DNA of 64,000 nt from an uncultured Gammaproteobacteria bacterium (lineage in GTDB: Bacteria > Patescibacteriota > Microgenomatia > Levybacterales > GWA1-39-11). A program made the position numbers and the translations under genes. The stretch lies in the NCBI GenBank assembly GCA_964641355.1, contig CAZXND010000001.1, positions 11,869 through 75,868 on the forward strand, given 5' to 3'. Position 1 is the stretch's first letter. Each line of letters starts with the position of its first letter. This document shows positions 67 to 56,551 of the stretch, piece after piece. The notes below the pieces were generated by a model that made no database searches, had not been told where the DNA came from, and saw only the letters and a list, made by a program, of their open reading frames with translations.

Positions 67-1029
67 TTAAAGACTGATTAATTTTACTTTTTTTACTATT
101 TTATTTATTAACTCTTTTGTGTCTGAAAACCTATCAAAACTCTTTAGAACAACGACGATGTATGTTTTATTCTTCTGAGAAAGAGATGTTACCAAAACTC
201 CCCCAGCTTCTTCAGTATACCCAGTCTTAACCCCATTTACTCCATCTGTCCCTAAAAGAATATTTAGATTTGAGAGAGTATGACTTACTGGAATATTAAT
301 AGATGAGACGGTAGCGTTTTTAGTTGCAACGATTTTTCTGAAGGTATCATTTTTTAGCGCATATGCTGCTAATTTTGATAAATCTTTTGCGGTTGTAAAA
401 TTGACATCTTCAAGTCCAGATGGATCTACAAAATAAGTATCATTTAACCCCAACTCTGCTGCCTTTTCATTCATTCTAACAACAAATTCAGAGGTTCCAC
501 CGGGGTAATTCTCAGCAAGTGTTACAGCTGCATCATTTCCAGATGGTAAAAGTAAGCCATAAAGTAAATCAATAACTCTAATACTCTCTCCATTAAGCAG
601 ACCCATTCTTGATCCTTCGATAAATTGAGGTGTGCTTGCTGTAAGTATTCTATCTTGTGGATAAGTTTCAAGAGCAATTATTGCGGTCATTATCTTTGCC
701 GATGAAGCTGGAGGAAATCTAAAATCATCATTACGTCCATCTATTACAATCCTCTCTGTGGGATCGTAAACAATAAAAGAGGGAGAAGAGATACTTAGAT
801 TTTCTTTTTCATCAAAAATCGGCAAATCACTAGTGGAAATTGCTTTTGAAGAATAATCTTTGAAATCGTTTTTTGAAACTTTTGAAAGTAAAATAAAAAC
901 AGCAATTATTAGAACGGAGTTAAAAATAAAAAGAGAAAGAAATAGATAAAACTCTTTTCGCTTAAATAGGTTTTGTTTAAATTTTTTAACTTTTTGGTTC
1001 TTGTTTTTCGATAACTGAGAATCTTTCAT
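67..1029 (-). CDS. D-alanyl-D-alanine carboxypeptidase (serine peptidase S11, PBP5/6-like), membrane-anchored
   Basis: SxxK (SSAK), SxN (SGN) and KTG (KTGYT) motifs; N-terminal TM segment. Confidence 0.8.
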   Translation of the reverse strand: MKDSQLSKNKNQKVKKFKQNLFKRKEFYLFLSLFIFNSVLIIAVFILLSKVSKNDFKDYSSKAISTSDLPIFDEKENLSISSPSFIVYDPTERIVIDGRNDDFRFPPASSAKIMTAIIALETYPQDRILTASTPQFIEGSRMGLLNGESIRVIDLLYGLLLPSGNDAAVTLAENYPGGTSEFVVRMNEKAAELGLNDTYFVDPSGLEDVNFTTAKDLSKLAAYALKNDTFRKIVATKNATVSSINIPVSHTLSNLNILLGTDGVNGVKTGYTEEAGGVLVTSLSQKNKTYIVVVLKSFDRFSDTKELINKIVKKVKLISL

Positions 1030-2341
1030 CTACTCTCTCCATATCTCTTGGGTAGAGACTTGCCTCTCTAATATTTCCAAGACCTAATAATTTCCATGTT
1101 AATCTTTCAAGACCAAAGGAAAACCCCCCTTCAGGTGGCATTCCAAATTTAAAAGCTTGAAGATACATTGTAAACTTTTCAGGATCCACTCCGCGATCCC
1201 TCATTGCTAAGACCAGCTGATTGTAATCATTAATTCTTTGACTCCCACTCAAAACTTCCGTACCTCTAAATAAAAGATCGTAAGAGAGACTATACTCTGG
1301 ATTACTTGGATCTGGCATGGTATAAAAAGGCTTCTTGCTTAGTGGAAAATGAGTGATTGTAACAAAATCGCTATCATGCTTATCTTTAGCCCATTTACAA
1401 ATATCCATTTCATCCCCAGGGCCAAGGTCTGGTTCTTTTCTAACATCTCTTCCTGTCTCTTTAAAAATAATTTCTTGCGCTTCTCTTAAAGTTAATCTTG
1501 GAATTTTTCCCATACCTATTTTTGTGTAATTAAATTTCCCAAGCTCAAAAATACTGCTTTCTTCAACAATTTTTATAATACTTGTCCCAACTTTTTCGAG
1601 TAATGTTAGAAGTTCATCATAATCTACAAATCCAAATTCACAATCCATCTGCGTTGATTCTGATAAATGTCTTGTAGTGACAGATGGTTCTGCTCTATAT
1701 GCCCTAGAAATTGTATAAACTCTTTCAAAAACAGGAACCAACATCTGTTTATATAACTGTGGACTTTGAGAAAGATAGGCACGGTGTCCATAATAATTCA
1801 CGTCAAATACTTCAGTTCCCCCTTCTGTTGCTCCTGCAACTATAGTTGGAACAAAAACTTCGGTACAACCCAACTCTTCCACAATTTTTCTAAATGCATT
1901 GACGATTTCTGACTGAATCTTAAATATAGATCTTACCTTCGGATGGCGAAGGGTTAAAGACCTGTAATCCAAAAGAGTAGGCAGTTCTAAGTTTAACTCA
2001 ACCCCTCCCATATCGAAAGGCAAAACTTCTGGTTGGGAAATAATCTTAATTGAAGAAACAGAGATTTCCACTTTTCCTGTTGGAATATTATCGTTAACTG
2101 TATTGTGAGGTCGTTCTTTAACGGTTCCAACCACTTCTACAACACTTTCCGAACGAAGATCCGCAGCTGTAGCAAAAGCTTCGGAATTAGATTCATGCAA
2201 AACAAGCTGTAAAATACCTGTGTAATCGTTTAAATCCACAAATATCAACTTCCCATGATCACGCCTATTTCTAACCCAACCTTTGAGAGTTACATCTTCC
2301 CCCACAAGACTAGAAGCTTTAAGACAAAGAGTTCTTGTCAT
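986..2341 (-). CDS. aspS: Class II aspartyl/asparaginyl-tRNA synthetase (archaeal-type AspRS-like)
   Basis: N-terminal OB anticodon domain, QSPQLYKQ, FRAE..TRHL motif 2, GGFSFGLERL motif 3; about 450 aa. Confidence 0.75.
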   Translation of the reverse strand: MTRTLCLKASSLVGEDVTLKGWVRNRRDHGKLIFVDLNDYTGILQLVLHESNSEAFATAADLRSESVVEVVGTVKERPHNTVNDNIPTGKVEISVSSIKIISQPEVLPFDMGGVELNLELPTLLDYRSLTLRHPKVRSIFKIQSEIVNAFRKIVEELGCTEVFVPTIVAGATEGGTEVFDVNYYGHRAYLSQSPQLYKQMLVPVFERVYTISRAYRAEPSVTTRHLSESTQMDCEFGFVDYDELLTLLEKVGTSIIKIVEESSIFELGKFNYTKIGMGKIPRLTLREAQEIIFKETGRDVRKEPDLGPGDEMDICKWAKDKHDSDFVTITHFPLSKKPFYTMPDPSNPEYSLSYDLLFRGTEVLSGSQRINDYNQLVLAMRDRGVDPEKFTMYLQAFKFGMPPEGGFSFGLERLTWKLLGLGNIREASLYPRDMERVDERFSVIEKQEPKS

Positions 2342-4368: not shown

Positions 4369-5727
4369 ATGGAAGAAAGAATTGAAGAAGAAGTTAGAAG
4401 AGCTTATAAGCGAATAAAGAATTCAGGATTTGAAGTTTATCTAGTTGGAGGGTGTGTGAGGGATTTATTGATGAATAAGCTACCACACGACTGGGATCTT
4501 GCAACAAATGCAACACCTCAAGATCTTCAAAGTATATTTCCACACTCCTTTTATGATAATTCATTTGGCACCGTGGGAGTTCCTTATGGAAAAGAAGGAA
4601 TTTCAACGGTTCTAGAAATAACAACATATAGAAGAGACGTCAACTATAATGATTCTCGTCATCCAGAATATGTTGAATGGGGGAAAGATATTAACGATGA
4701 TTTATCAAGAAGAGACTTTACTGTCAATGCACTAGCTCTTGATTTAGACAGTGGGAAAATTATCGACCCATTTGAGGGACGAAAAGACATTGAAGCACAA
4801 ATAATTCGAGCAGTAGGTAATCCTGAAGCAAGGTTTAAGGAAGATGCTCTAAGACTCGCAAGGGCAATCAGATTTGCAAACCAATTAGATTTTGAGATTG
4901 AAGAATCTACCGAAAAGGCCATAAAGAGTGATGCAGAGTTAATTTTAAAAATATCAGGAGAAAGAATAAGGGACGAACTATTTAAAATTCTAGCAAGCCC
5001 CGATCCTTATAAAGGTGTTATGCTTCTTGATAAAGTTGGATTACTATCTTTAATTCTTCCGGAATTAGCAAGAGGTAAAGGAGTGAACCAAGCAAGACCC
5101 GGAAGACATCATACTGAAGACGTATTCACGCATAACGTTCTCTCTTTAAAGTTTTGTCCATCAATTAATCCTATTGTTAGATTTGCCACATTGATTCATG
5201 ACGTTGGAAAACCTTATGTCGAAGGGAGAGATGAAGAGGGATATGTAATCTTCTATAATCACGAAATTCAAGGTGCAAGAGTTGCAAGAGAAATTTGCGA
5301 TAGACTTAGACTATCAAAAAAACAAAGAGATAAAATCATTACCCTCATTCGCTGGCACATGTTTTCTGTTAATGAAAACCTTACTGACAGTGCCGTTAGA
5401 AGATTTATAAGAAGAGTCGGGTTTGAAAATGTAAAAGATATGATAGATCTAAGAATTGGAGATAGACTTGGTGGAGGTACTCAAACTCCCGAAAGTTGGA
5501 GACTGAAAAAATTTAAAGAAAGAATTGAGGAACAACTACATCCTCCCTTCTCAATGAATGACCTCGTTGTAAACGGAAATGATGTAATGTCTATATTAGG
5601 TATTGATCCTGGACCAAAAGTTGGTAAAATACTTGAATCCTTATTTCACGAAGTAGACCAAGATTTATCCAAAAATAACAGAGATTATTTACTTCACAAA
5701 ATGAAAGTTTTTAAAGAAGATAACTAA
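4369..5727 (+). CDS. cca: CCA-adding tRNA nucleotidyltransferase with HD domain
   Basis: GGCVRDLLM and RRDFTVNALA polymerase-beta motifs; HD (HHTEDVFTH) domain. Confidence 0.85.
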   Translation: MEERIEEEVRRAYKRIKNSGFEVYLVGGCVRDLLMNKLPHDWDLATNATPQDLQSIFPHSFYDNSFGTVGVPYGKEGISTVLEITTYRRDVNYNDSRHPEYVEWGKDINDDLSRRDFTVNALALDLDSGKIIDPFEGRKDIEAQIIRAVGNPEARFKEDALRLARAIRFANQLDFEIEESTEKAIKSDAELILKISGERIRDELFKILASPDPYKGVMLLDKVGLLSLILPELARGKGVNQARPGRHHTEDVFTHNVLSLKFCPSINPIVRFATLIHDVGKPYVEGRDEEGYVIFYNHEIQGARVAREICDRLRLSKKQRDKIITLIRWHMFSVNENLTDSAVRRFIRRVGFENVKDMIDLRIGDRLGGGTQTPESWRLKKFKERIEEQLHPPFSMNDLVVNGNDVMSILGIDPGPKVGKILESLFHEVDQDLSKNNRDYLLHKMKVFKEDN

Positions 5728-5783
5728 TACCGATAACCTCTCATTTTAAGATTGGAATCGACTGTTAACTTTTAATAAGCACT

Positions 5784-6983
5784 ATGAAAAAGTATTTTAC
5801 CTCAGAATCAGTAACAGAAGGACATCCTGATAAAATTTGTGATCAAATCGCAGACGCCATACTTGATGAAATTATTAAAAATGATCCTCTCGCCCGAGTA
5901 GCTGTCGAAGCACTTATAACCAATGGTGTAATCGTGGTTGCAGGAGAAGTAACGACTGATATTTATGTAGAAATTCCCGAAATAGTTAGAAGAGTAATAA
6001 AAGAGATTGGATATACAAATTCTGAGTATGGATTCCACTTTAGAACAAGTGGGGTCATGGTAGCTATCCACGCTCAGTCGAGTGATATTGCAAGGGGAGT
6101 CGATAGTTATCATGAAAACAAGAAAGGGAAAATTGTCACGGAAGATCTAGAAAAGCTTGGTGCTGGAGACCAAGGACTCATGTTTGGATTTGCATGCAAA
6201 GAAACTAGTGAACTTATGCCACTTCCAATTGTTCTAGCCCATAAACTATGCCAAAGACTTTCTGAAGTAAGAAAAAAGAATATTATTAAAGGACTTAGAC
6301 CGGATGGAAAATCTCAAGTTACAGTCGAATATGAAGGTGATAAACCAAAACGAGTAGCAAGAGTTTTAGTTGCAGCACAACATGATAATGATATAAAGCA
6401 ACCAATTCTTAGGAAGGAAGTTATCGAAAAAGTCATTAAAAAAACAATACCAACTCACTTAATCGACTCGAAAACTGAATTCTTAATAAATACAACTGGC
6501 AGATTTGTTACTGGAGGCCCAGAAGCAGATACAGGACTGACAGGGAGAAAAATCATAGTCGATACATATGGTGGATATAGTAGACACGGAGGAGGAGCGC
6601 TTTCTGGAAAAGATCCAACAAAAGTGGATCGTTCTGCTCAATATATGGCAAGATACGTGGCAAAAAATATCGTTTCTTCAAACTTAGCAGATAAATGCGA
6701 AATACAAATTTCATACGCCATCGGCAAACCAGAACCTTTTTCTGTTTATGTTGACACTTTTAATACGGGGAAGATCAACGACGAAAACTTATCTTTAATA
6801 GTCAATGAAGTATTTGATCTTAGACCAGGAATGATAATTAAGAAATTAGATCTTAGACGTCCACTCTATAAACAAGTAGCGGCGTATGGACACTATGGAA
6901 GAGGTGAATTGAATCTTCCCTGGGAAAAGACTGATAAAATTTCTGATATACTAAAGGCAGCTAAAAAATATGTTAAAAGATAA
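5784..6983 (+). CDS. metK: S-adenosylmethionine synthetase
   Basis: [18 protein letters not shown] and [17 protein letters not shown] motifs. Confidence 0.95.
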
Positions 6984-7422
6984 ACTCCAAGAAGAACTTA
7001 AACAATCGATGCTAGCAAAAAATGAGTTAAGAACTTCTGTGATCAGACTGCTTTTATCAGCAATCACTTATCACGAAATTCAAAAAGGTGGAGCAGGATA
7101 CAAAGCAAGCGACGAAGATGTTATCGAAGTGGTAGGTCGTGAAATCAAAAAAAGAAGAGAATCTATAGAAATGTACGAAAGCGCAGCAAGAACAGAACTT
7201 GCGGATAAAGAAAAAAAAGAGCTTGAGATTTTACAAACATTTCTCCCCGAACAAATGAACGAAGAAGAAGTAAGACAGTTAGTAAAACAAGCAATAAAAG
7301 ACACGAATGCTAAAACTCCACAAGAGATGGGAAAAGTAATGGGAGCTCTAATGCCTAAGGTCAAAGGCAAAGCTGATGGAACAATGGTATCAAATCTAGT
7401 TCGTGAAGAATTATCCGCTTAA
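6970..7422 (+). CDS. GatB/YqeY domain protein
   Basis: About 150 aa; N-terminus LKQAMKAKD-like; typical YqeY architecture. Confidence 0.7.
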
Positions 7423-23805: not shown

Positions 23806-24135
23806 TTAATAAGTAGCATCTTCTATATAACCTTGATCGTTATCATTAATTGGAATCCCTAGTGCAAATGAAAGAGAATTAGCGATAGAAACACCAACTC
23901 TCAAACCGGTAAAAGATCCTGGGCCACGCTTAACATAAATTTTGTCTATCTTATCAAGGGTTAAACTATTTTCCCTTAAAAGCTCTTCAATAAAAACTAA
24001 GGCTTTCTCGGTTCTTTGAAATATAGGTTTAGAGTCACTCTTTTTATCTCCGTTTATCTCAAGTTGAAGATTAATTTCTCTATTATTTGATGTGTCTATG
24101 TATAAACTAATCATCTTAAATTTCGACAGCTCCAA
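23806..24135 (-). CDS. tsaB: tRNA t6A biosynthesis protein TsaB (short, N-terminal-domain-only form)
   Basis: GPGSFTGLRVGVSIANSLSFALGIP motif; 109 aa. Confidence 0.65.
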   Translation of the reverse strand: MELSKFKMISLYIDTSNNREINLQLEINGDKKSDSKPIFQRTEKALVFIEELLRENSLTLDKIDKIYVKRGPGSFTGLRVGVSIANSLSFALGIPINDNDQGYIEDATY

Positions 24136-24694
24136 TTCTAATTATTTTATACGGTTTTATAGAACAATCAATAACTGTGGAGGATTTTTTTAGAGATGTC
24201 TTTCCTCTTACAACAAGGTCTACTTTCGAAATCAATTTTTTATCTAATTCTGAAAAAGTAAACGGCGTTAAATCCCCTGCAAAATTTGCAGATGGAGCAA
24301 TAATTGGACCTGTCGATCTAATCAATTTAAGAAGTGGTTTATGATTGGGTATTCTAACTCCAATTGTTTTTTTTCCTGCTCTAACCAAGGAAGGGACCTT
24401 AGAGGTTTTAACAGGCAGAATTATAGTTAACCCACCCGGCCAATGTTTTTTCATCAAATTGATAATATTAGAATCAAAGGGCTTAACATATTTTTTGATC
24501 ATTCTTATACTAGAAAAGAGCACTGGAACCGCTTTTTCATGTGACCGCTTCCTAATTTCATAAACCTTTTTAACTGCTTTAGAGTTTTCCATCAAACACC
24601 CTATCCCGTATGCCGTGTCGGTCGGAAATATCACCACTCCTCCATTTCTAATAATATAAGCTATTTTTTTATTTGAAAAAGAACACTCATCCAT
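24116..24694 (-). CDS. tsaC: L-threonylcarbamoyladenylate synthase (YrdC/Sua5 family)
   Basis: VVIFPTDTAYGIGC...VYEIRKR YrdC motifs. Confidence 0.85.
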   Translation of the reverse strand: MDECSFSNKKIAYIIRNGGVVIFPTDTAYGIGCLMENSKAVKKVYEIRKRSHEKAVPVLFSSIRMIKKYVKPFDSNIINLMKKHWPGGLTIILPVKTSKVPSLVRAGKKTIGVRIPNHKPLLKLIRSTGPIIAPSANFAGDLTPFTFSELDKKLISKVDLVVRGKTSLKKSSTVIDCSIKPYKIIRIGAVEI

Positions 24695-25127
24695 TTTTTC
24701 TTTTTATAATGACCTCTCGCGAATTTTTATCCAGTTGTCTGAAAAAAATTTCCCATCTTTTTTTAGGTAAAATTTTTTTTCCTTTTTCTGGCCATTCAAT
24801 AATAACTACTCCTCGATCATCATTAAGCAGATCTTTTAAACCTACTCGTTTTATTTCGGCCAAATTATCAAGTCTGTACAAATCCACATGATAAAGCGTA
24901 TCAATATTCTCACTCCCAGCAACTAAATGAGTTCTAACTATAATAAAGGTTGGGGAGATAACACGAGAACGAACATTAAGCGCGCGAGCTAAACCTTTTA
25001 CAAAAGTTGTTTTACCACTTCCCAAATCACCATATAAACAAATTACATCACGAGGTTTGATTTTTTTTGAAAAATCTTGACCTAATTTTTCCGTATGAGA
25101 TTTGCTTATTGAGATTATTTTATTCAT
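24687..25127 (-). CDS. tsaE: tRNA t6A biosynthesis ATPase TsaE
   Basis: Walker A GDLGSGKTTFVKG; about 146 aa. Confidence 0.85.
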   Translation of the reverse strand: MNKIISISKSHTEKLGQDFSKKIKPRDVICLYGDLGSGKTTFVKGLARALNVRSRVISPTFIIVRTHLVAGSENIDTLYHVDLYRLDNLAEIKRVGLKDLLNDDRGVVIIEWPEKGKKILPKKRWEIFFRQLDKNSREVIIKRKNG

Positions 25128-25133
25128 AAATAG

Positions 25134-25967
25134 TTAATCAAAAAAGCCTTTTTTCTTATGTAAAAAATCAAAATTTCTCCAGGCAAGTATACCACAGCCG
25201 GACAGAAAAACAGAACCGATTAAAAAGAATAAGACTACAGACGGACTTATTTTTGAAGTTTCTGTCCCACTTAAATTCTCTCGCTCTTGAACTTTAGTAG
25301 GTGATACTTTATCTTTTACTCCTAATACAATTTCAACTGTTTTTCTTTTTGTGGGAGTTACTTTTAACGTAGGAGTGGGACTTAAAGTAGGAGTTTTTGT
25401 TGGCACAACAGTACTAGTAGGGACTGGCGTCACTGTTGAAGTGGCTGGTGAAGATGTTGGTGTAGGAGTTGGACCAGTAAGTGCGATCGTAGTCTCATTA
25501 GACCATAAAGAAGGGGAACCACAACTTGCCGTATACCTTCCCAACTTAAAAGTATATTCACCAGGTCCATTATAGAAAACGCTGTCCTTATCTGGCTTAA
25601 ATTTCAAAGTACCACTCCAACTTCCGCTTATTAAATCTGTTTGCGCCACTTTATAATAGGAAGTACATCCACTTCCAGGAGAATTGCTCCAGCTTCCATT
25701 ATTATCTTGTGTGTATCCAAAGTAGCTTGTTCCACTTGGATAAAAAACTCCTCTTATATATGAGTCGCTACAACCAGAACAAGATAGAAATAAACTAATC
25801 ATAAACTCTTGAGACTGATCTATGATTGAAGGCATTCCGCTTATGGTCATACTAGAAGCAGAAAGAGCTTTTTGAGGAAAAAGAAAGACAGCAAGAACTA
25901 AGACAAGAAATACGTATGTCTTATGTACCATTACTGTGGGGGAGCACACCCCACTTGAGAGTAACAA
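25134..25967 (-). CDS. Cell-surface protein with Pro/Thr-rich linker and C-terminal hydrophobic anchor followed by a basic tail
   Basis: Signal peptide; PTPTPTSSPATSTVTPVPT... low-complexity run; C-terminal TM plus RN..HKKK tail. Confidence 0.6.
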   Translation of the reverse strand: MLLSSGVCSPTVMVHKTYVFLVLVLAVFLFPQKALSASSMTISGMPSIIDQSQEFMISLFLSCSGCSDSYIRGVFYPSGTSYFGYTQDNNGSWSNSPGSGCTSYYKVAQTDLISGSWSGTLKFKPDKDSVFYNGPGEYTFKLGRYTASCGSPSLWSNETTIALTGPTPTPTSSPATSTVTPVPTSTVVPTKTPTLSPTPTLKVTPTKRKTVEIVLGVKDKVSPTKVQERENLSGTETSKISPSVVLFFLIGSVFLSGCGILAWRNFDFLHKKKGFFD

Positions 25968-25992: not shown

Positions 25993-27195
25993 TTAATTTA
26001 AATACCCGTATTGAAAGATCTGTCCCACAGAATAATGACTGCTAAAGTCAAGATTAGGACCATACCAAGGATCATTCATAATATAATTTCCACCTGACCC
26101 GCTTTTTAAGACTACAAAATGAGTTCCATATGCCCCTGCGTTAAGTCCAACAATTACTGGTTGGCCTGAAGAAAGTCTTGAATCGATAGCTGAAGTACTA
26201 GAATTCCATACGGAAGTAAATCTTCCCGCCCAAGGAATGAGCATATAGGCAGAAAAGAAATAACTAGTATTTCCAGCAATATCAGCAGGAGTAACATTCT
26301 CCCCTTTTTGTTTTAGAACCATTGCTACCGAAGTTAAAAGGCACCCATATTTCCAAACCGGTTCACCTGATGATCCAATCCCACCATTTCCCCATCTCTC
26401 ATCTCTCTGGTTATAATACCAACCATCAGGACTAGGTTGAGGTGGTAAAATTCCACCACCTTGCGTATCTGCAAACCTTGCAAATCCTGCAAGCTGAGCC
26501 TTTGCTGCCGAAAGTAATTTCTGATAGTTAGCCTCACTTCCTTGAGTTTCAGATAATAATCGTTGTTTTGCCTGTTTATCAGAATCTAGCTGATCATTAT
26601 ATTTTTGAAATTGCTCGTTTAAGGCTTCAGCGTCTTTCTGTTTTTGCTCAAGTATCCCTTGTTGATTTTCATAATTTACTCTAGACTGCTCGGCTGCATA
26701 AACATTTTTTTTATCAAAAATTTGAACAATTCTTAAGTATTTCAATCTCGTCATAAAGGAGGTGATATTATTAGAAGTTAAAAGTATTTGCCATGGATCT
26801 GCTCTCCCAACTTCGTAGACAGCAGCGATTCTACCTAGAAGAGCTTTACTCGAAACACTTATATCTTTTTCAAGGTTATTAACTTTTCCCTTTGTAATTT
26901 CAATATCATCTAAGAGTAGTTCTATTTCTTGTTTTGTATTTTCAATTCTAGCTTGAGTAAGCTTAATCTGATTATCCATTATACTTATCTCTGAAGAAAG
27001 AGTTCGAACTTTACTAGTTGCCTCGTTTTTTTTGCCCTCAAGATAACTTACACATTGTGATTTAGTTAGGTTCTGACTCTTACACTCAGGAATTGTAGAT
27101 ATTTCCTCAGCACTAACAAAAGAATTGACTCCTAAAAAAACCAACAAAAAAACAAGTATGAAGATTGAAAAAGCTTTTATCTTCTTTGGTATCAT
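25993..27195 (-). CDS. FtsEX-associated coiled-coil cell-wall hydrolase with C-terminal papain-like (C39-like/CHAP-like) Cys peptidase domain
   Basis: Long coiled coil after the signal peptide; C-terminal Q...KYGCLLTSVAMVL...GTHFVVL (Gln/Cys/His); ATGA overlap with the ftsX stop. Confidence 0.6.
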   Translation of the reverse strand: MIPKKIKAFSIFILVFLLVFLGVNSFVSAEEISTIPECKSQNLTKSQCVSYLEGKKNEATSKVRTLSSEISIMDNQIKLTQARIENTKQEIELLLDDIEITKGKVNNLEKDISVSSKALLGRIAAVYEVGRADPWQILLTSNNITSFMTRLKYLRIVQIFDKKNVYAAEQSRVNYENQQGILEQKQKDAEALNEQFQKYNDQLDSDKQAKQRLLSETQGSEANYQKLLSAAKAQLAGFARFADTQGGGILPPQPSPDGWYYNQRDERWGNGGIGSSGEPVWKYGCLLTSVAMVLKQKGENVTPADIAGNTSYFFSAYMLIPWAGRFTSVWNSSTSAIDSRLSSGQPVIVGLNAGAYGTHFVVLKSGSGGNYIMNDPWYGPNLDFSSHYSVGQIFQYGYLN

Positions 27196-28055
27196 TTGAG
27201 ATATCGAAAGACTGCAAGAAAGGATGCGACAGCTCCTAACAAACAAGCCAAAAATACTTCCACTGCGAAAATTTCAAGAATTAATATTGGTGATACAGGA
27301 AAAATTGGAACACCACGAAGGAAAGTTTCAAGAGTTGGAGTAGAGTATAACAATAGACCAAAGGTAATAAGACTACCTAAAATAGCTCCAACTAATCCAT
27401 AAAACATACCCTCTAAAAGAAATGGCATTCTTATAAACCAATTAGATGCGCCTATTAATTTCATTATTTCTATTTCTTCTCGTCTAACAGTGATTCTTAT
27501 TCCAATTATTGTAATAATTACAAAAGTCGAGACTAGAACAAGAACACTTATAACAACTATTCCGATCCTTTTAAATGCGTTTGTCCATGAGATTAAAGTG
27601 TCTACGATATCCTTTTGGAATACTACCTCCTCAACAATGTTAGAACCTTTCACTATCGAGGCGAGACTTGATAGATCTTCTACTTCTTTGGCTTGAACCT
27701 CAATAGATGCGGGTAATATATCTGCAGTAACTAAATCCAACAAAATAGGATCATTTTTGTTTTGTTCTTTATAAATTCTAAGGGCTTCCTCTTTTGAAAC
27801 ATACACAATAGAGGATGTTTTACCTGTGTCTTTGAGTTCTACTTTCATTGTCTGAATTTGTGATTTACTCGCAGTATCTTTGAAAAAAACGGTAAGTTGA
27901 GGTCTTGATTCAAAATAACTAACAAGTCGAATTGATAGTATTGTAATAATAGTAAATACCGTAATTGCAAAAAAAGTAAGAGTCATTATTAAACCAGCAG
28001 AAATAGCTTGATACGGAGATCTTCTTATATATTTGGCAACAGTTCTAAGATGCAT
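27192..28055 (-). CDS. ftsX: Cell division permease FtsX
   Basis: 4 TM with a large extracellular loop; immediately downstream of ftsE. Confidence 0.85.
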   Translation of the reverse strand: MHLRTVAKYIRRSPYQAISAGLIMTLTFFAITVFTIITILSIRLVSYFESRPQLTVFFKDTASKSQIQTMKVELKDTGKTSSIVYVSKEEALRIYKEQNKNDPILLDLVTADILPASIEVQAKEVEDLSSLASIVKGSNIVEEVVFQKDIVDTLISWTNAFKRIGIVVISVLVLVSTFVIITIIGIRITVRREEIEIMKLIGASNWFIRMPFLLEGMFYGLVGAILGSLITFGLLLYSTPTLETFLRGVPIFPVSPILILEIFAVEVFLACLLGAVASFLAVFRYLK

Positions 28056-28734
28056 CTTTTTTCTTTCCTTTCTCCTTCTTCTCTACCTTTCCCTCTTTTA
28101 AAGAGAAGACAGAATGATCATATTTATCTACTATTTTCTCGTTGTGGGTTGCCATTAAAATTGTAGTTCCCTTTTTATTTATATTATTCAAAAGTTCAAC
28201 TATTTGGAAGGAAGTATCAAGATCAAGATTTCCTGTAGGCTCATCTGCAAGTATTACTTCAGGGTCAAAAACAAGCGCTCTTGCTATTGCCACTCTTTGC
28301 CTTTCTCCTCCCGATAATTGCATGGGGAATTTTTCAAACTTTTCTCCAAGACCTACCTCTTCAAGTATTTTTTTTGCTTTCTCCTCTGCTTGCTTTTCAT
28401 CTGCGCCTGAAAATTGAAGAGGAAGCACTACATTCTCAAGCACTGTTCGATCGGTAAGTAATTTTAAGTCTTGAAAGATTACACCAACTCTTCTTCTAAG
28501 AGTTGGGATCTTTGAATGAGGAAGCTTAGTGAGATCCCAATCACCAAGAACAATACTCCCAGATGTTGGTAGAAGATCTTTCACAATAAGTCTAAAAATG
28601 GTAGTTTTTCCAGTACCTGTTGGGCCGATTAAAAAAGCGAAGCTTCCTTTTTCGACCAAAAAACTAACCTCCTTTAATGGTTGTGATTCATCTCCAAATT
28701 TTTTGGAAACTTTTTGAAATTCAATCATGGGCAA
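28045..28734 (-). CDS. ftsE: Cell division ABC ATPase FtsE
   Basis: Walker A GPTGTGKTT, LSGGERQRVAIARAL signature; 229 aa. Confidence 0.9.
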   Translation of the reverse strand: MPMIEFQKVSKKFGDESQPLKEVSFLVEKGSFAFLIGPTGTGKTTIFRLIVKDLLPTSGSIVLGDWDLTKLPHSKIPTLRRRVGVIFQDLKLLTDRTVLENVVLPLQFSGADEKQAEEKAKKILEEVGLGEKFEKFPMQLSGGERQRVAIARALVFDPEVILADEPTGNLDLDTSFQIVELLNNINKKGTTILMATHNEKIVDKYDHSVFSLKEGKVEKKEKGKKKDAS

Positions 28735-28758: not shown

Positions 28759-29202
28759 TTAATTCAACAGTTGAAGTCTTCCTACATCCATAAGCCAACC
28801 TGCTTTTTCTGCTGAGTTAGTTTGACCCCAAACTTTTACTTTTCTTCCTACAAATTTTGATAAATCCACTACTGAAGAGGTTAAATATACATTCTGAGAC
28901 TCTCCCCCTGGCCTTTCAAGATGAAAAGCTCCCTCATCTCCTATTCCACCCTTTCTCATAATTCCTTCGGCCGAATCTTTAAAAGTTTTAGTATCATTAG
29001 AACCAAAAACATCTCCTTTTTTAACTTGAGTTGATGATATTATTGAAGTATCAGTAGTGCTTGCTTTTGAAGAATTTCCTGCAAGAAAATAACCAGTAAA
29101 AATTCCGAGTGAAACAATAATTAAGAACACTAACAATGTAACTGTTGAGAGGGATTGCTTCTTTCCACCAAAATCATGAACGACACCATCTGTCATATAC
29201 AC
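28759..29202 (-). CDS. Membrane-anchored hypothetical protein
   Basis: N-terminal TM; no recognisable domain. Confidence 0.4.
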   Translation of the reverse strand: MYMTDGVVHDFGGKKQSLSTVTLLVFLIIVSLGIFTGYFLAGNSSKASTTDTSIISSTQVKKGDVFGSNDTKTFKDSAEGIMRKGGIGDEGAFHLERPGGESQNVYLTSSVVDLSKFVGRKVKVWGQTNSAEKAGWLMDVGRLQLLN

Positions 29203-29247: not shown

Positions 29248-30285
29248 TTACGACAACTTTAACTCAGCATCTATAAAAAGATCTATGTCTCCATCAAGTA
29301 CCCTATCTGGATCATTTACCTCAATCTTTGTTCTAGTATCTTTTACCAATTTATAAGGATGCAAAACGTAGTTTCTTATTTGATTTCCCCACGAAGGTGC
29401 TATATAGCTTCCTTTTATTTCTTTCTCCTCCTTTGTTCTCTTTTCCTCGTAGTATGCCCAGATTTTTGCAGTTAGTAATTTTAAAGCATTCTCTCTATTC
29501 TGAGCTTGGTAACGCTCCGTCTGACATGTTACCTGAATCCCAGTCGGCTTATGGATAAGCCTAACGGCAGTTGATACTTTTTGGACGTTCTGTCCTCCAT
29601 GAGAAGATGCTCTGTAGAAATCCCATTCAAGATCATCTTCTTTTATTTCGATTCCCTCGTCTTTTTCAACTTCAGGAAGAATTTCTACCAATGCAAATGA
29701 AGTTTGTCTTAGATTATTTGCATTAAAAGGAGATAATCTAACCAACCTATGAACCCCCTGCTCGCCCTTTAAATATCCATATGCAAACTCTCCAGAAATA
29801 AGAATTGTTACACTCTTAATCCCTGCCTCTTCACCTTGACTTTCATCAATTACATCAGCACTCCAACCTCGCCTCTCTGCAAATCTCAAATACATCCTCA
29901 TGAGCATTGACGTAAAATCCATAGCATCTACACCTCCCTGACCAGCATGAACAGAAAGAATCACGTTTTTTGCATCGTGTTTTCCAGAAAGATATAAGTG
30001 AAGCTCAAGATCGGAGAGAATATCTTTTAAGCCTTCTTCATTATTATTATCGATAAGTGTTTGAATCTTCTCTGAATCGTCTATTTCCTTTTGAAGGATG
30101 GCTAATTCCTTCATCCTATTAGAAGCATGTGCATTATTTTTCCAAAAATCAGGATCCATTGATTCAGCTTCAATTTCAGATACCTTTTTTCTTTTTTCGG
30201 AAAGATTTAACCTTTCAAGAATAATTTTTGCTCTATCTTTAAGTTCGTTCAAAATAAAATCCTTATTATGGCCAATTATACTCAA
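29248..30285 (-). CDS. prfB: Peptide chain release factor 2 (single frame, no programmed frameshift)
   Basis: SPF tripeptide and GGQ motif ([10 protein letters not shown]). Confidence 0.85.
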
Positions 30286-42438: not shown

Positions 42439-43953
42439 TTATACCTCTTCAAATCTTTTAATTACAAAATCTCTACTTAGTGAAAGAATTAACCAAGCAG
42501 CTTTTGGACCATGGTCTTTTCCAATAAGACTCGTATAAATAGCTGAATATGCATCTTTGGATAGTAAATCAAGTTCTTTTGCCCAAGTGTACATATTCGT
42601 TTGAAAATCTTCAGCATTCCAATCCTTATTTAATTCATTTGCAATTCTTCTGAGAAATTTTTTTTGCTGTTCACTCAAATTCGAAACATTCTCCGATAGC
42701 TCCTGTTGCACCATAAATTTGTCCTTTTCAGAAGCATATTTTTCCAACCATATTTTTGCATATTTGCCCCATTCTTCAGCACCAACTTTGTTAATTTCCT
42801 TTTCCATATTAGGCATTTGCACCCATTGTGAAATTGTTGAAAATCTAACATTAGGAGGAATCTTGATCTCACCCACTTGAGAAAGCTCGAATTCTCTTGC
42901 AAAATCGTCCCCTTTTTTCGAAAAATAAGCCTCTGCGGCTTTCTGATACTCATCAAAAAGTTTAGGAATAGTTTCTCCTTCGGGATCAAAATTTATAGCC
43001 TGGTTTATTTTAGTTTTCACCATAAGAAAACGTAGAATTTCAGGAGGAAGAATATCAAGCATTTCGCTCGCTGAGGAGCCTCTTCCTTTGGATGAAGACA
43101 TTTTCTTACCTCCAACCAAAAAAAACTCGTAAGCAACCGGTTGTGGTACTGGATAACTTATCACTCTTTCACAAATCAAACTCGCTAAATCGTGTGATCC
43201 TCCCTTACTCATGTGGTCCTTACCAGCCCCCTCGACGGTAACACCAATAACCTTCCACTTAGCCGGCCATTCAACTTTCCAAGGTAACTTTCCTGAAATG
43301 TTACCATCAGAGCTAAAGGGAGATATTCTTCCCTCATGGCCACAACCCTTCACCCAATTTAAACCGTCAATTTTACAAATATATGAAACTTTTTCGCCAT
43401 CCCAAGCATTCACTTTTGTAGTTGAAACCTTGTCACAATTTTCACAATAAACCTGAAACGGAAACCAATCAGAAGGAATTTCTTTTTTATATAACTCCGA
43501 ATAGATTTTTCTTATCTCACTTACTTTATCAAGACATTCACGGATCACATCGTTCATTCTTCCACTTCCATAAAGATCTGTTGACCAAATAATCTCAGGC
43601 TCACAGTCTAGTGCATTAAAAACTTTTTTGAAATCAAGAGCAAAATATTCAGCATAATTTTTAAACCCAGGTTGTGGAGATGGAACTTTATAAAGAGGCA
43701 CTCCTAGATATTTATCAAACTCTTTTGGAAGATAAACTGGTAAATCATCCATGGGATCATGATCGTCAAAAACATAGGTATACTTAGCATTTATTCCAGC
43801 ATTTTTTAGCGATTTATATATCAGATCGTGAATAACCACTCCGCGTAGAGAACCAACATGAATCCTTCCTGAAGGAGTTTTCATGTCGTCCACCCATTCT
43901 AAGGGGAGATTTCTTTCCTTTAATTTTTGAGCAACTTGGTCAGACCAATACAT
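42439..43953 (-). CDS. lysK: Class I lysyl-tRNA synthetase (archaeal type)
   Basis: TPSGRIHVGSLRG (HIGH region), FDDHDPMDDLP and KMSSSKG (KMSKS) motifs; about 500 aa. Confidence 0.8.
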   Translation of the reverse strand: MYWSDQVAQKLKERNLPLEWVDDMKTPSGRIHVGSLRGVVIHDLIYKSLKNAGINAKYTYVFDDHDPMDDLPVYLPKEFDKYLGVPLYKVPSPQPGFKNYAEYFALDFKKVFNALDCEPEIIWSTDLYGSGRMNDVIRECLDKVSEIRKIYSELYKKEIPSDWFPFQVYCENCDKVSTTKVNAWDGEKVSYICKIDGLNWVKGCGHEGRISPFSSDGNISGKLPWKVEWPAKWKVIGVTVEGAGKDHMSKGGSHDLASLICERVISYPVPQPVAYEFFLVGGKKMSSSKGRGSSASEMLDILPPEILRFLMVKTKINQAINFDPEGETIPKLFDEYQKAAEAYFSKKGDDFAREFELSQVGEIKIPPNVRFSTISQWVQMPNMEKEINKVGAEEWGKYAKIWLEKYASEKDKFMVQQELSENVSNLSEQQKKFLRRIANELNKDWNAEDFQTNMYTWAKELDLLSKDAYSAIYTSLIGKDHGPKAAWLILSLSRDFVIKRFEEV

Positions 43954-46624: not shown

Positions 46625-48133
46625 TTATCTATCTTTTACGGGAGGGAAAAGTATTATATCGCGGATGTGAGGCGTATTAGTAAGAATCATGGCCATTCTA
46701 TCAATGGATATCCCTATTCCAGCCATTGGGGGAAATCCATATTCCATAGCTGTTAAAAAGTCTTCGTCTACTTCCATTGCCTCTTTATCTCCTTCAAGTT
46801 TTCTTTGTCTTTGATCTTCAAACCTAGCTCGTTGATCTCTAGGATCATTCAATTCTGAATAGCAATTCATGACCTCGAATCCACCAATATAACATTCGAA
46901 TCTTTCAACTAAATTAGGATTATTTCTGTGCCTTTTTGTTAGAGGACTTGTTTCATGAGGATAGTCCATTACAAAAGTTGGCTGAGTAAATTTACCATCG
47001 TAATACTCTTCAAAAAGAGCAAGTAAAAGATCTCCTCTTTGCTGGCTATGTTTTGGATTTATATTTAGACCATCGGCTATTTTGTATAAATCCTTATCGA
47101 TTACTGTTTCTGGATCAAAACCATAAGCCTCTTTTAGACCTTCATAGATTGTCACTCTCTTCCAAGGAGCTTTAAAATCAATAACGTGTCCATTATATTC
47201 AACTTGCGTTGTTCCATGTATGTCTTGTGCTACTCTCTCAAAGATTGTTTCTGCCATCTCAAGCATTTCTAAATAATCTGAGTAAGGTTTATAAAGTTCT
47301 ACAGCGGTAAATTCAGGATTATGTGTCCTATCCATTCCTTCATTTCTAAAGTTTCTGGAAAATTCAAATACCGGTCCCATATTCCCACAAACAAGGCGTT
47401 TTAGATAAAGCTCATTTGCTAATCTTAAATACATGTCTTGATCTAAGGCATTAAAATGGGTAATAAATGGTTTTGCGTTTGCGCCTCCGTAAGTATTATC
47501 AAGAACTGGAGTCTCCACTTCTAAAAATCCGTACCCCAAGAACTCATCTCTCATTATTTGAGTCATTCTAGCTCTTGTTCTAAATCTTTCACGAGCGTTT
47601 GGATTTGTCATAAGTTCAAGATATCTTTGCCTCCTTGCAAGCTCGGGATCTTCAACTCCTCCTCTTCTAATTAAAGGTGGCGGAAGCAAAGCTTTAGCAA
47701 GCATTGTCAATTCTTGTGCTTTTATTGTTATTTCACCGGTTTTAGTTCTAAAAACCTCTCCTTGAGCATTCACAAAATCACCGGTATCGTAGTTATCGGC
47801 TATTAGAATAAATTTCTCGTCTTCTGGCCCGTTTTTCTTAAGATAAACCTGAACTTTTCCCGTAGTATCTTCTACATCGTAAAAAATAGATTTTCCCATC
47901 TCTCTTCGACCTACGATTCGACCAACCACACTTACCCTTCTTTCTTCTAGTGAATCAAACTCCGATGCTATTGCTCCGGCTGTGTGAGTTATCAAAGGAG
48001 GTTCAACGGGATATGCATTTATTCCAGCAGCTTCGAGATTTTGAAGGTGGTTAAGTCTTGAATTTCTACCAGTATTTCTCTCTTGTTGTATGGGTGAATC
48101 TTGTGGCTGAGGCGGCCCTTCTTTCCTTATCAT
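46625..48133 (-). CDS. lysS: Class II lysyl-tRNA synthetase (full length, with N-terminal anticodon-binding OB domain)
   Basis: RLNHLQNLEAAGINAYP, VSVVGRIVGRREMGK, FRNEGMDRTHNPEFTAVE (motif 2); about 500 aa. Confidence 0.9.
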   Translation of the reverse strand: MIRKEGPPQPQDSPIQQERNTGRNSRLNHLQNLEAAGINAYPVEPPLITHTAGAIASEFDSLEERRVSVVGRIVGRREMGKSIFYDVEDTTGKVQVYLKKNGPEDEKFILIADNYDTGDFVNAQGEVFRTKTGEITIKAQELTMLAKALLPPPLIRRGGVEDPELARRQRYLELMTNPNARERFRTRARMTQIMRDEFLGYGFLEVETPVLDNTYGGANAKPFITHFNALDQDMYLRLANELYLKRLVCGNMGPVFEFSRNFRNEGMDRTHNPEFTAVELYKPYSDYLEMLEMAETIFERVAQDIHGTTQVEYNGHVIDFKAPWKRVTIYEGLKEAYGFDPETVIDKDLYKIADGLNINPKHSQQRGDLLLALFEEYYDGKFTQPTFVMDYPHETSPLTKRHRNNPNLVERFECYIGGFEVMNCYSELNDPRDQRARFEDQRQRKLEGDKEAMEVDEDFLTAMEYGFPPMAGIGISIDRMAMILTNTPHIRDIILFPPVKDR

Positions 48134-53089: not shown

Positions 53090-54520
53090 ATGGTGAAAAA
53101 AGGAAAATCGGTCGTAAAGAGAAGGGTTCTAAGAATAAACAAAATAATTCCTTCTCTCTTTTGGTTCTTCATAGGATTTGTCTTTGCTGGGATTTTCTTA
53201 ATAAGTCTCTTTCTCATCTATTTTAAATATCTTTATAAAGAGCGCGTTATTCCAGGGGTTTACATTGGAAATATATATGTTGGAGAAAAAACCAAAGAAG
53301 AGATTGAAAGTGCTTTTAATGAAAAGAATTCTCTTATTGGAGATGATACTCTTACCCTGTATTTAAATGATAATATTGCAACATATTCTGCAAAAAATTT
53401 AGACGTAGGATACGATACCAATCTTATAGTTAATCAGAGTTTGAGCTTAGGAAAACAAAAGGATATAGTGAGCAACCTCTATATTATAATAAACTCCTAT
53501 CTTAATGGAATATTCTTAAAACCATCTTACTCATTCTCCACTGAAAAACTTAATTCCAGTTTAGATCCTATTTATAAAAAAACTTATATTGCTCCCATTG
53601 ATGCTCTCTTTACAGTCTCAAACAATAGAGTTACCGCTTTTAGACAATCTAGCGATGGGAAAATTATTGACAAAAACTTACTCTATAAGAAAGTCAGTGA
53701 AAAAATCCCGGTGATTTTAAAAAATGAAAATAAGAACATTTCTATAGAAATTCCAATTAGGGTAATAAAACCCAATATAACAACCGAAAAAACTAATAAA
53801 TATGGCATCGAAGAAGTGATAGGTATAGGCAAATCTTTTTTTAGAGGCTCGATACCTAATAGAATCCATAATGTAACATTAGCCGCATCAAGAATTAACG
53901 GAATATTAGTAGCTCCTGGAAAAAGTTTTTCTTTTAACGAATCCCTTGGTGACATCTCTAAATTTACTGGGTATAAAGAAGCCTATGTTATAAGCAATGG
54001 AAGGACTGTACTAGGCGATGGTGGTGGAGTATGCCAAGTTTCAACCACTTTATTTAGAGCTCTTTTAAATGCAGGACTTCCGATCACCGAAAGGCACCCT
54101 CATGCATACCGCGTAGGATACTACGAGCAAAATGGGGGTCCCGGAGTTGATGCAACAGTTTATTCCCCAACCGTTGATCTAAAATTCAAAAATGATACAA
54201 AAAATTTTATCCTTATACAAAGCTTTTTAAATCCAGATGAGCAATCGCTAGAATTTACTCTCTTTGGGAAAAAGGATGGAAGAATATCAAAAGTTACTGA
54301 TCCAATCATATTATCTGAATCCCCAGCTCCTCCTCCAGCATATCAAGATGACCCAACCCTACCCAAAGGCACCACAAAACAAGTTGATTTTGCAGCAGCT
54401 GGTGCCAAAGTCCAATTTAGTAGAGTAGTGGAAAAAGATGGAAAAGTAATAACAAGTGAAACATATACCACTAATTATGCCCCTTGGAAGGCTGTCTATC
54501 TCGTTGGAACAAAGGAATAA
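53090..54520 (+). CDS. VanW-family protein, membrane-anchored
   Basis: VLGDGGGVCQVSTTLFRALLNAGLPITERHPHAYRVGYY VanW signature. Confidence 0.8.
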   Translation: MVKKGKSVVKRRVLRINKIIPSLFWFFIGFVFAGIFLISLFLIYFKYLYKERVIPGVYIGNIYVGEKTKEEIESAFNEKNSLIGDDTLTLYLNDNIATYSAKNLDVGYDTNLIVNQSLSLGKQKDIVSNLYIIINSYLNGIFLKPSYSFSTEKLNSSLDPIYKKTYIAPIDALFTVSNNRVTAFRQSSDGKIIDKNLLYKKVSEKIPVILKNENKNISIEIPIRVIKPNITTEKTNKYGIEEVIGIGKSFFRGSIPNRIHNVTLAASRINGILVAPGKSFSFNESLGDISKFTGYKEAYVISNGRTVLGDGGGVCQVSTTLFRALLNAGLPITERHPHAYRVGYYEQNGGPGVDATVYSPTVDLKFKNDTKNFILIQSFLNPDEQSLEFTLFGKKDGRISKVTDPIILSESPAPPPAYQDDPTLPKGTTKQVDFAAAGAKVQFSRVVEKDGKVITSETYTTNYAPWKAVYLVGTKE

Positions 54521-55474: not shown

Positions 55475-56551
55475 ATGAAAATCCTTTCTATTGAAACCTC
55501 ATGTGATGAAACAGGTGCCGCAGTAGTCGAAAGAGATGTCAACGGAATAAAAGTTATTTCCAATACTGTAGCTACTTCATCTGAAATCCATGCAAAAACA
55601 GGAGGCATTATCCCTGAAAAAGCGGCAAGAGAACAATTAACCTATATCATTCCTGTGATCACAAAGGCTCTTCTTGCTTCAGAAGGAATAGATACCAGTA
55701 AAAAAACAAAAGACAAATATAATTTAGCGCTTGATATCCTCAAAAATAAAATTGATGCAATAGCTGTCACAAATGGTCCAGGTCTAATCGGATCTCTTCT
55801 TGTTGGAGTTGAAACTGCAAAAACGCTATCATTTTCCCTTAACAAACCTCTTATTCCAGTACACCATCTTTTATCACACATTTCGGCTAATTTCATAGAC
55901 AATCACATAGAAAAAATCGAATTCCCATTAATTGGACTTATAATATCTGGAGGTCATACTGATCTTCTTTTATATACAAAAGTAAATGATTTTCTATGGC
56001 TTGGAGGGACAAGGGATGATGCTGCTGGAGAAGCACTTGATAAAATTGGAAGACTACTCAAAATAAATTATCCAGCAGGCCGAGAGATCGAAAACCGAGC
56101 AAAAAAAATAAATAATTCTAAAATTTCCTTCAAAAGCCCACTACTGGGAAGTTCAAGCTATGATTTTTCATTCTCTGGACTAAAAGCAGAAGTAGCAAGA
56201 TATGTAGATGGTAAGAATTTAAACGAAGAGGATATTGATGAAATTTGCTACGCAACTCAAAAGGCAATCATTCAAGTCGTTGTCGAGAAAACCATAAAAG
56301 CAGCAATCAATCATAGCGCTAAATCTATATTGATTGGAGGTGGAGTATCAGCCAATCAGACGTTAAAAGAAAAAATTAACATTGAAGCAAAAAATATTGG
56401 AGTGAGAGTCTACTCCCCTAAAATCGAGTACTGCACCGATAACGCCGCAATGATCGGAGCACAATCTCTAATAGATTTTGACCCAAAAGATTGGAGAGAA
56501 GTTCGAGCGCAACCTGAACTATATTTTGAAAGAAAGAATATAATCATCTGA
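55475..56551 (+). CDS. tsaD: tRNA N6-adenosine threonylcarbamoyltransferase TsaD (Kae1/Gcp)
   Basis: MKILSIETSCDETGAAVV N-terminus; ASKH-fold motifs. Confidence 0.9.
   Translation: MKILSIETSCDETGAAVVERDVNGIKVISNTVATSSEIHAKTGGIIPEKAAREQLTYIIPVITKALLASEGIDTSKKTKDKYNLALDILKNKIDAIAVTNGPGLIGSLLVGVETAKTLSFSLNKPLIPVHHLLSHISANFIDNHIEKIEFPLIGLIISGGHTDLLLYTKVNDFLWLGGTRDDAAGEALDKIGRLLKINYPAGREIENRAKKINNSKISFKSPLLGSSSYDFSFSGLKAEVARYVDGKNLNEEDIDEICYATQKAIIQVVVEKTIKAAINHSAKSILIGGGVSANQTLKEKINIEAKNIGVRVYSPKIEYCTDNAAMIGAQSLIDFDPKDWREVRAQPELYFERKNIII

Follow-up and report, generated by a model that had tools for sequence, protein, structure and literature searches.

Wall hydrolysis under the control of FtsEX is central to bacterial division and has been studied well. 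A 2024 review names only EnvC, PcsB, CwlO and RipC as FtsEX partners, with LytM/M23, CHAP and NlpC/P60 as their modules (PMC11627006). In EnvC, two FtsX periplasmic domains grip residues 114–128 and 141–160, which flank a linker with a six-residue helix (Cook et al., PMC7668044), and CwlO is reported to need the cofactors SweC and SweD and to act in elongation (PMC6705773). We describe here a cassette of ftsE, ftsX and a gene for a secreted coiled-coil peptidase on a stretch of 64,000 nucleotides, referred to below as the window (contig CAZXND010000001.1, positions 11,869 to 75,868, assembly GCA_964641355.1), which is deposited as DNA of an uncultured Gammaproteobacteria bacterium and placed by GTDB in the Patescibacteriota (Microgenomatia; Levybacterales; GWA1-39-11). 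The third protein of the cassette joins a coiled coil of the FtsEX-partner kind to a C39-like cysteine peptidase domain, and we propose that it is probably an FtsEX-activated cell-wall peptidase that follows the logic of PcsB, CwlO and RipC with a different papain-clan module.

The locus resembles each of the described systems in part. PcsB of Streptococcus pneumoniae (PDB 4cgk) combines an FtsEX-activated coiled coil with a CHAP domain, whereas the catalytic domain here belongs to Peptidase_C39_2 and has no match to PF05257. The hydrolase gene here stands directly behind ftsX, while pcsB in pneumococcus is not known to be adjacent to ftsEX. EnvC of Escherichia coli and Vibrio cholerae (PDB 6tpi, 8hd0 and 8tzl) shares the layout of helix I, a short linker helix, helix II and an extra helix, but ends in an inactive M23/LytM domain that activates separate amidases, where the present protein has a different fold and a conserved catalytic set; the present organism, an ultra-small patescibacterium, presumably lacks an outer membrane, unlike the hosts of EnvC. 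CwlO of Bacillus subtilis and RipC of Mycobacterium tuberculosis (PDB 8idc) join a coiled coil to a papain-clan cysteine peptidase, as here, although theirs is NlpC/P60, for which no PF00877 match was obtained in the present protein. In place of the SweC and SweD that CwlO needs, the loci of the present family keep another small membrane protein upstream of ftsE. Beyond the FtsEX partners, the putative C39-like peptidase of Bacillus anthracis (PDB 3erv; PF13529) is a stand-alone domain with long insertions, no coiled coil, no ftsEX context and no assigned function, and PeiR, PeiW and PeiP are pseudomurein lysins of archaeal viruses, at 15% identity, with neither a coiled coil nor a link to FtsEX.

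The ftsEX cassette and its conservation

The first gene, ftsE (28045–28728, minus strand), encodes an ATP-binding cassette (ABC) ATPase of 227 amino acids in whose translation the Walker A (GPTGTGKT), signature (LSGGERQ) and Walker B (ILADEPTG) motifs of an FtsE-type ATPase can be read, and which matches Pfam ABC_tran at E = 4e-33. It scores 264.6 bits on the NCBIfam model TIGR02673, 0.25 under the equivalog cut-off of 264.85, and the next family follows at 185 bits. The gene caller places its start at ATG 28728 (227 amino acids in loci L001 and L002), and the listed open reading frame opens two codons earlier, at TTG 28734. The second gene, ftsX (27192–28055, minus strand), encodes a permease-like subunit with four transmembrane helices (TM) and, between TM1 and TM2, an FtsX-type extracellular domain of about 110 amino acids. 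Its matches to Pfam FtsX_ECD (61.6 bits, residues 53–144) and FtsX (50.7 bits, residues 167–281) both exceed their cut-offs; the best NCBIfam families, FtsX_Gpos (177 bits, cut-off 225) and FtsX_Gneg (170 bits), are under the equivalog cut-offs. Its best PDB matches are solved FtsX chains (8idb_C, 8hd0_C, 8tzj_C), those of M. tuberculosis, E. coli, V. cholerae and Pseudomonas aeruginosa being matched at E of about 1e-14, with LolC at only 1e-6.

The third gene (25993–27195, minus strand) begins at ATG 27195, because this start overlaps the ftsX stop as ATGA (27192–27195), and its product of 400 amino acids is identical to a called protein (P0001) from public assemblies of the same organism; TTG 27246 is not the start. 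The initial annotation had recognized the three-gene cassette on the minus strand at these coordinates, which was found as stated, and had described its junctions as ATGA-type. This description is right for ftsX and the third gene but not for ftsE and ftsX, which overlap by 11 nucleotides (28045–28055), ATGCATCTTAG, instead.

Gene order was examined in a scan for family patterns over one genome per species (185,579 species), which gave 54 loci. In 39 of these the homologue is full length and 35–57% identical to the third protein, and the patescibacterial names among the records are Levybacteria, Shapirobacteria, Woesebacteria, Amesbacteria and Microgenomates. An ftsX homologue lies directly upstream on the same strand, ending within a few hundred bases of the first aligned residue, in 38 of the 39 Microgenomates-type loci, the contig of the last being too short for a decision, and ftsE precedes ftsX wherever the DNA extends. 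As this adjacency recurs in 38 of 39 related loci, it is not due to chance. Most of the 39 loci retain a longer order of prfB, a small membrane protein gene, ftsE, ftsX and hydrolase gene. The suggestion that the cassette is a lineage-specific variant agrees with this distribution, the fusion of coiled coil and C39 domain behind ftsEX being found in Microgenomates-type Patescibacteria. At E <= 1e-3 the whole third protein has 1413 homologues and its C-terminal domain alone 946 cluster representatives, of which 175 are retained at E <= 1e-10. The coiled coil is shared by 117 of the 149 best representatives of the C-terminal domain, and the fusion is therefore the dominant context of this C39_2 subfamily.

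Some of the records carry titles at odds with their content. Loci L003, L006, L007, L010, L013, L014, L016, L017, L028–L030, L032–L034, L036, L037 and L039 are titled 'uncultured Gammaproteobacteria' or 'Pseudomonadales' despite a Microgenomates-type prfB-ftsEX-hydrolase locus, and a Parcubacteria-like homologue (L045) lies in a record titled 'Bathyarchaeia archaeon'. Such titles look mislabelled or mis-binned.

Architecture of the third protein

The catalytic domain (residues 250–400; 25996–26448, minus strand) was assigned in the initial annotation to a C39-like rather than a CHAP or NlpC/P60 cysteine peptidase, and the profile searches proposed there support this assignment. Pfam Peptidase_C39_2 (PF13529) matches residues 260–377 over profile positions 5–143 of 143 with 36 bits against a cut-off of 24 (E = 1.2e-8), and also matches 50 of 51 homologues. 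CHAP (PF05257) and NlpC/P60 (PF00877) gave no Pfam match at E <= 1 in the third protein and do not occur among the families of the 51 homologues, and a CHAP or NlpC/P60 identity was rejected on this ground. A canonical bacteriocin-processing C39 peptidase was likewise rejected, as PF03412 reached 13 bits, under its cut-off of 22, and the fusion partner of the domain is a coiled coil and no exporter; no leader-peptide gene was seen among the open reading frames of the cassette.

The Gln/Cys/His arrangement noticed at the outset, Gln...KYGCLLTSVAMVL...GTHFVVL, is present as Q263, C285 (TGC, 26341–26343) and H359 (CAT, 26119–26121), and is joined by D375. Gln263 lies upstream of the Cys in an NQRDxRW motif and the Asp follows the His; this third catalytic residue and the conserved upstream Gln are features that distinguish the domain from that of PcsB. 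Conservation was assessed in 148 relatives drawn from clusters no more than 50% identical to one another: Gln263 and Cys285 are kept in all 148, His359 in 146 and Asp375 in 147. A loss of the Cys/His dyad among homologues, which would have spoken against a peptidase, was thus not found.

Structural comparison gave a consistent picture. The AlphaFold2 model of the third protein was built from an alignment with 51 homologues (mean predicted local distance difference test score, pLDDT, 86.8), and in it residues ~250–400 form a compact alpha/beta domain, most of it at pLDDT values above 90. Helix 285–296 begins with C285, H359 lies in strand 358–367 and D375 closes strand 370–375, a placement that, in the model, is the arrangement of the papain fold. 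A profile of the catalytic domain alone (A2) matched in the PDB the B. anthracis entry 3erv (5.5e-6), the PCAT double-glycine protease (1.6e-4), PeiR (5e-3) and ComA (6.5e-3), and its GC, H and DP positions coincide, in these alignments, with the Cys, His and Asp that serve catalysis in the known enzymes. The best fold neighbour is PeiR (PDB 8z4h; 15% identity), and the neighbours also include a CdiA toxin domain of papain-like type, the protease domain of AMS and, from PCAT1 and ComA, the C39 domains; a viral fold library returned only a few matches, unnamed beyond 'Peptidase'. The profile matches and the model together support an intact C39-like papain-clan cysteine peptidase of the Peptidase_C39_2 family.

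Residues 1–29 (27109–27195, minus strand) resemble a signal peptide, MIPKKIKAFSIFILVFLLVFLGVNSFVSA followed by EE, in keeping with the initial annotation. The assignment was made directly from the translation, in which a basic n-region precedes a hydrophobic core that leads to V-S-A before EE, and the model has a helix at residues 5–21. A coiled-coil hairpin domain of the EnvC/PcsB kind follows (residues 45–245; 26461–27063, minus strand), with model helices at 45–60, 66–129, 134–140 (short), 144–217 and 221–245. A hydrophobic periodicity of 3.5 residues is clear in helix 66–129 (z = 3.3 against shuffled sequences) and weak in helix 144–217 (z = 1.4), and heptad periodicity was not found in helix 221–245, in the C-terminal domain or elsewhere outside the two long helices. 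The coiled coil had been described as heptad-rich and about 250 amino acids long; the first of these holds for helix 66–129 but only weakly for 144–217, and the length has to be corrected to about 200 residues, because of the helix positions in the model and the periodicity.

The proposal that this coiled coil follows the type of the PcsB, CwlO and EnvC partners was strengthened by three kinds of comparison. When a profile of residues 46–247 (A3) was searched against all 177,635 distinct PDB sequences, the top two matches were E. coli EnvC (6tpi_A, 6.6e-5; 8hd0_E, 8.1e-5), with an alignment that is gapless across 187 residues (A3 positions 3–189 on EnvC 46–232). The lower-ranked matches were short generic coiled coils, except for a weak match (E = 0.8) to 8i6o_E, a 'membrane-bound metallopeptidase' whose PDB entry also contains an FtsX chain. 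The NCBIfam EnvC model, scored on the single third protein, gave E = 1.7e-5 in the same register (residues 65–231 on model positions 29–195), and the top 30 Foldseek matches in the PDB include the N-terminal domain of RipA, PcsB, EnvC, RipC (from the FtsEX complex) and Cg1735. A search of the PDB with the whole third protein as a single sequence returned only marginal matches (E >= 0.01), one to GCN4 and one to the coiled coil of RipA. Pfam CC_PcsB matches 34 of the 51 family members, but we regard the Pfam coiled-coil matches as weak support, because the models of the unrelated ATG16 (27 of 51), DUF3450 and Filament match the homologues about as often; sequence resemblance among coiled coils easily misleads. 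These comparisons, and the presence of a secreted antiparallel hairpin, support a coiled coil of the FtsEX-partner kind (EnvC/PcsB type).

The gapless alignment maps the FtsX-binding segments of EnvC onto residues ~116–130 and ~143–162 of the third protein, on either side of helix 134–140. The segments aligned to the EnvC interface contain the invariant residues R122, Y127 and G130 and Y153, Q158 and D161, and most invariant residues of the hairpin tip fall in them. We therefore mark, with moderate confidence and from the aligned sequences, the hairpin tip (residues ~116–162; 26710–26850, minus strand) as a candidate FtsX-binding region. Conservation in 10-residue blocks along the coiled coil shows no striking single peak, so that the case for this interface is built solely from the invariant residues and the EnvC alignment. 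Helix 221–245 (26461–26535, minus strand), which contains invariant Y224, Q225, L228, A231 and Q234, is separate in the model and occupies the place of the restraining arm of EnvC or PcsB's alanine-rich helix (PMC7668044); by analogy and position it is a candidate autoinhibitory 'restraining arm'. Both mappings are held moderately, because in the EnvC alignment the HMMER bias term is as large as the score and the E-values are modest.

Probable cell-wall function and its alternatives

The substrate of the peptidase is likely to be peptidoglycan, as suggested by the company that the C39_2 domain keeps. Relatives without the coiled coil bear wall-binding modules: two of them (P0198 and P0234) each carry two LysM domains, and the Streptococcus protein described below has ChW repeats. 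PeiR, the best fold neighbour, lyses methanogens (PMC6189367), and the cysteine peptidases of its family cleave pseudomurein at the Ala-epsilon-Lys bond (PMC4592898); in mycobacteriophage endolysins, the N5 domain has been matched to the same C39-like structure of B. anthracis (PMC3314691). In a Woesebacteria-like locus (L036), the C39 homologue (4803–6065) is followed by a paralogue (6137–7330, plus strand) in which a Peptidase_M23 domain is joined to the coiled coil of this family. In this C39/M23 pair the coiled coil is seen to serve as a scaffold for interchangeable wall-hydrolase modules, and FtsEX in this organism may serve two different hydrolases; there is also an unexplained gap of ~800 nucleotides between ftsX and the C39 gene in this locus. 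The present window encodes a Peptidase_S11 DD-carboxypeptidase (67–1029) and a protein with VanW, PG_binding_4 and G5 domains (53090–54520), and the organism therefore builds peptidoglycan.

Among the other C39_2 relatives, a protein of 690 amino acids from Streptococcus bovimastitidis (L051; 3438–5510, plus strand) combines six ChW repeats and a GBS_Bsp-like repeat with a signal of the KxYKxGKxW type and, at its C-terminus, a C39_2 domain. It shares the YYNQRDSRW...GC motif, similar matches are present in loci L052, L054 and L056, and as a candidate wall hydrolase of cultured bacteria it would lend itself to tests more readily than the patescibacterial protein. In a Chloroflexi record (L046; 4005–5495, plus strand) and three from Dormibacterota (L047–L049), the C39_2 domain follows ~330 amino acids of 'DGxGGIHPFGGAP'-type repeats that have no Pfam match.

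How the cassette might work can be outlined from the described systems. The effector would be exported via its signal peptide, and two FtsX extracellular domains would clamp the tip of the hairpin. In the resting state the catalytic domain would probably be kept inactive by helix 221–245, by the hairpin or by both. Binding and hydrolysis of ATP by FtsE would move the FtsX extracellular domains and compress the coiled coil, which would free the catalytic domain. The freed cysteine peptidase would most likely act near the membrane on the cell's own peptidoglycan, cleaving a stem or cross-link peptide bond, and this cleavage would take place in septum splitting or in wall growth.

A number of observations weigh against this proposal. 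The function of the C39_2 subfamily is deduced from sequence and model. The wider group also contains members other than wall hydrolases, such as the double-glycine leader peptidases and the acyltransferase BtrH, and in one C39_2 relative, a metagenomic representative of 343 amino acids (P0268), the domain is joined to a type IV secretion system (T4SS) pilin domain (PF18895). When the C-terminal domain was compared by tblastn with 50,697 phage records, a single match came up, a weak one, which lends no support to an origin of the domain from a phage endolysin. FtsE falls just below and FtsX well below the NCBIfam equivalog cut-offs. Five homologues of the Parcubacteria type (27–30% identity), mostly from Parcubacteria- or Moranbacteria-labelled records, keep the fusion and show no ftsEX in the fetched flanks (up to 5 kb per side, and less upstream in three of them), so that the linkage to ftsEX is not universal. 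Finally, a glycosidase activity has been claimed for an archaeal C39-like protein in a 2026 paper (PMC13642728).

One alternative is that FtsEX controls a protease with a target other than peptidoglycan, such as a secreted or surface protein, a pilin or a leader peptide. The best-characterized C39 peptidases cut after Gly-Gly leaders, and the domains of ComA, PCAT1 and AMS are structural or profile neighbours of the present one; the pilin fusion of P0268 and the gene for a secreted, anchored Pro/Thr-rich protein directly downstream of the cassette (25134–25967) could also be read in this way. However, the leader-peptidase family PF03412 reaches only 13 bits where its cut-off is 22, LysM or ChW wall-binding modules occur in the nearest relatives that do not belong to the coiled-coil family, an endoisopeptidase of the cell wall gives the top fold match, and the Pro/Thr-rich gene is kept in few loci only. 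The characterized FtsEX partners in the 2024 review all act on peptidoglycan (PMC11627006), and we consider a non-peptidoglycan target distinctly unlikely. Another possibility is that the third gene shares the ftsEX operon with no functional consequence, its product being a free secreted hydrolase or an enzyme with which an episymbiont attacks the wall of its host. This would fit the Parcubacteria-type fusions with no ftsEX in their flanks and the published inference that many Patescibacteria are episymbionts, but it leaves unexplained why the gene order is the same in 38 of 39 loci, down to 35% identity. The ATGA overlap moreover suggests translational coupling, and the coiled coil is colinear with the FtsX-binding module of EnvC, with invariant residues at the aligned interface segments. 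A functionally meaningless adjacency is in our opinion very improbable.

It could also be argued that the C39-like domain has no catalysis of its own and serves for docking, to turn on an amidase or hydrolase encoded elsewhere, given that the coiled coil is most like that of EnvC, whose degenerate LytM domain only activates amidases (PMC7668044). The LytM domain of EnvC has lost its catalytic residues, in contrast to the set in the present family, where Gln, Cys, His and Asp are each kept in 146–148 of 148 relatives, and the Cys lies at the N-terminus of a helix as in active papain-fold enzymes. A silent module is not expected with catalytic residues so strictly conserved, and as there is also no amidase gene in the cassette, an activator of this sort seems to us the least probable of the explanations considered. 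An FtsEX-activated peptidase that cleaves the cell wall is the reading that we favour.

Neighbouring genes and significance of the fusion

Upstream of ftsE lie two further genes on the minus strand that recur with the cassette. The nearer one (28759–29202) encodes a small bitopic membrane protein, a homologue of which is found between prfB and ftsE in 34 of the 39 loci. It has 4289 homologues, the 120 listed being all unnamed or 'hypothetical', and no Pfam family or sequence relative in the PDB was found for it; its model has a transmembrane helix at residues 20–42 and an all-beta extracellular domain at residues 65–145. This protein could be an extra member of the cassette or a cofactor of FtsEX. 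The more distant gene, prfB (29248–30285), encodes peptide chain release factor 2 (Pfam PCRF and RF-1) and stands upstream in most related loci; prfB, ftsE and ftsX form an operon in pneumococcus as well. A bolder interpretation is that Peptidase_C39_2 constitutes a fourth catalytic class driven by FtsEX, with a bond specificity perhaps unlike that of CHAP, NlpC/P60 and M23 and a target that is perhaps not peptidoglycan, within a five-gene Microgenomates module in which the small membrane protein would be a cofactor like SweC/SweD or SteA/SteB in role, though not in sequence. We regard this combination as unlikely.

The gene directly downstream of the cassette (25134–25967, minus strand) encodes 277 amino acids, which begin like a signal peptide, are rich in Pro and Thr over a long stretch and end in a hydrophobic anchor, and its product has no Pfam or NCBIfam match. 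A homologue lies downstream of the hydrolase gene in loci L022, L034 and L039 (tblastn), and L036 has a similar Pro/Thr-rich open reading frame. A cluster of genes for the N6-threonylcarbamoyladenosine (t6A) modification follows (23806–25127, minus strand): tsaE (24687–25127), a Sua5/YciO/YrdC-family gene (24116–24694) and a short open reading frame of the TsaD/TsaB family (23806–24135; 102–109 amino acids). The short TsaB-like frame may be truncated or minimal, and a full-length tsaD is found at 55475–56551 (plus strand). Elsewhere in the window, a class I lysyl-tRNA synthetase gene (tRNA-synt_1f) is located 2.7 kb from that of an N-terminally extended class II D/K/N-type synthetase (42439–43953 and 46625–48133, minus strand), and a second class II D/K/N-type synthetase is encoded at 986–2341 (minus strand). 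A search of both strands of the window with Rfam returned nothing at the gathering score, with no tRNA, rRNA or riboswitch detected.

In the paper library searched, no publication came up that connects a C39-like domain with FtsEX or with a coiled coil of the PcsB type. The PF13529 and PF24568 pair is already present in the automatic annotation of many homologues; the Joint Genome Institute (JGI) labels several of them 'peptidoglycan hydrolase CwlO-like protein', and the named NCBI records say 'hypothetical protein'. The C39-like module on the scaffold of an FtsEX partner is real and widespread in one candidate lineage, and represents an expected kind of module swap. The advance is therefore modest, as hydrolase module swaps are to be expected and the automatic annotation already hints at this one. 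If the proposal is correct, a large uncultured lineage has put a C39-like cysteine peptidase, too, on the EnvC/PcsB-type scaffold, and a PF13529 subfamily that NCBI names only 'hypothetical protein' would gain its first concrete function hypothesis, namely cell-wall cleavage. The cassette would then be a compact three-gene system from a minimal genome that could be reconstituted for the study of mechanotransmission by FtsEX.

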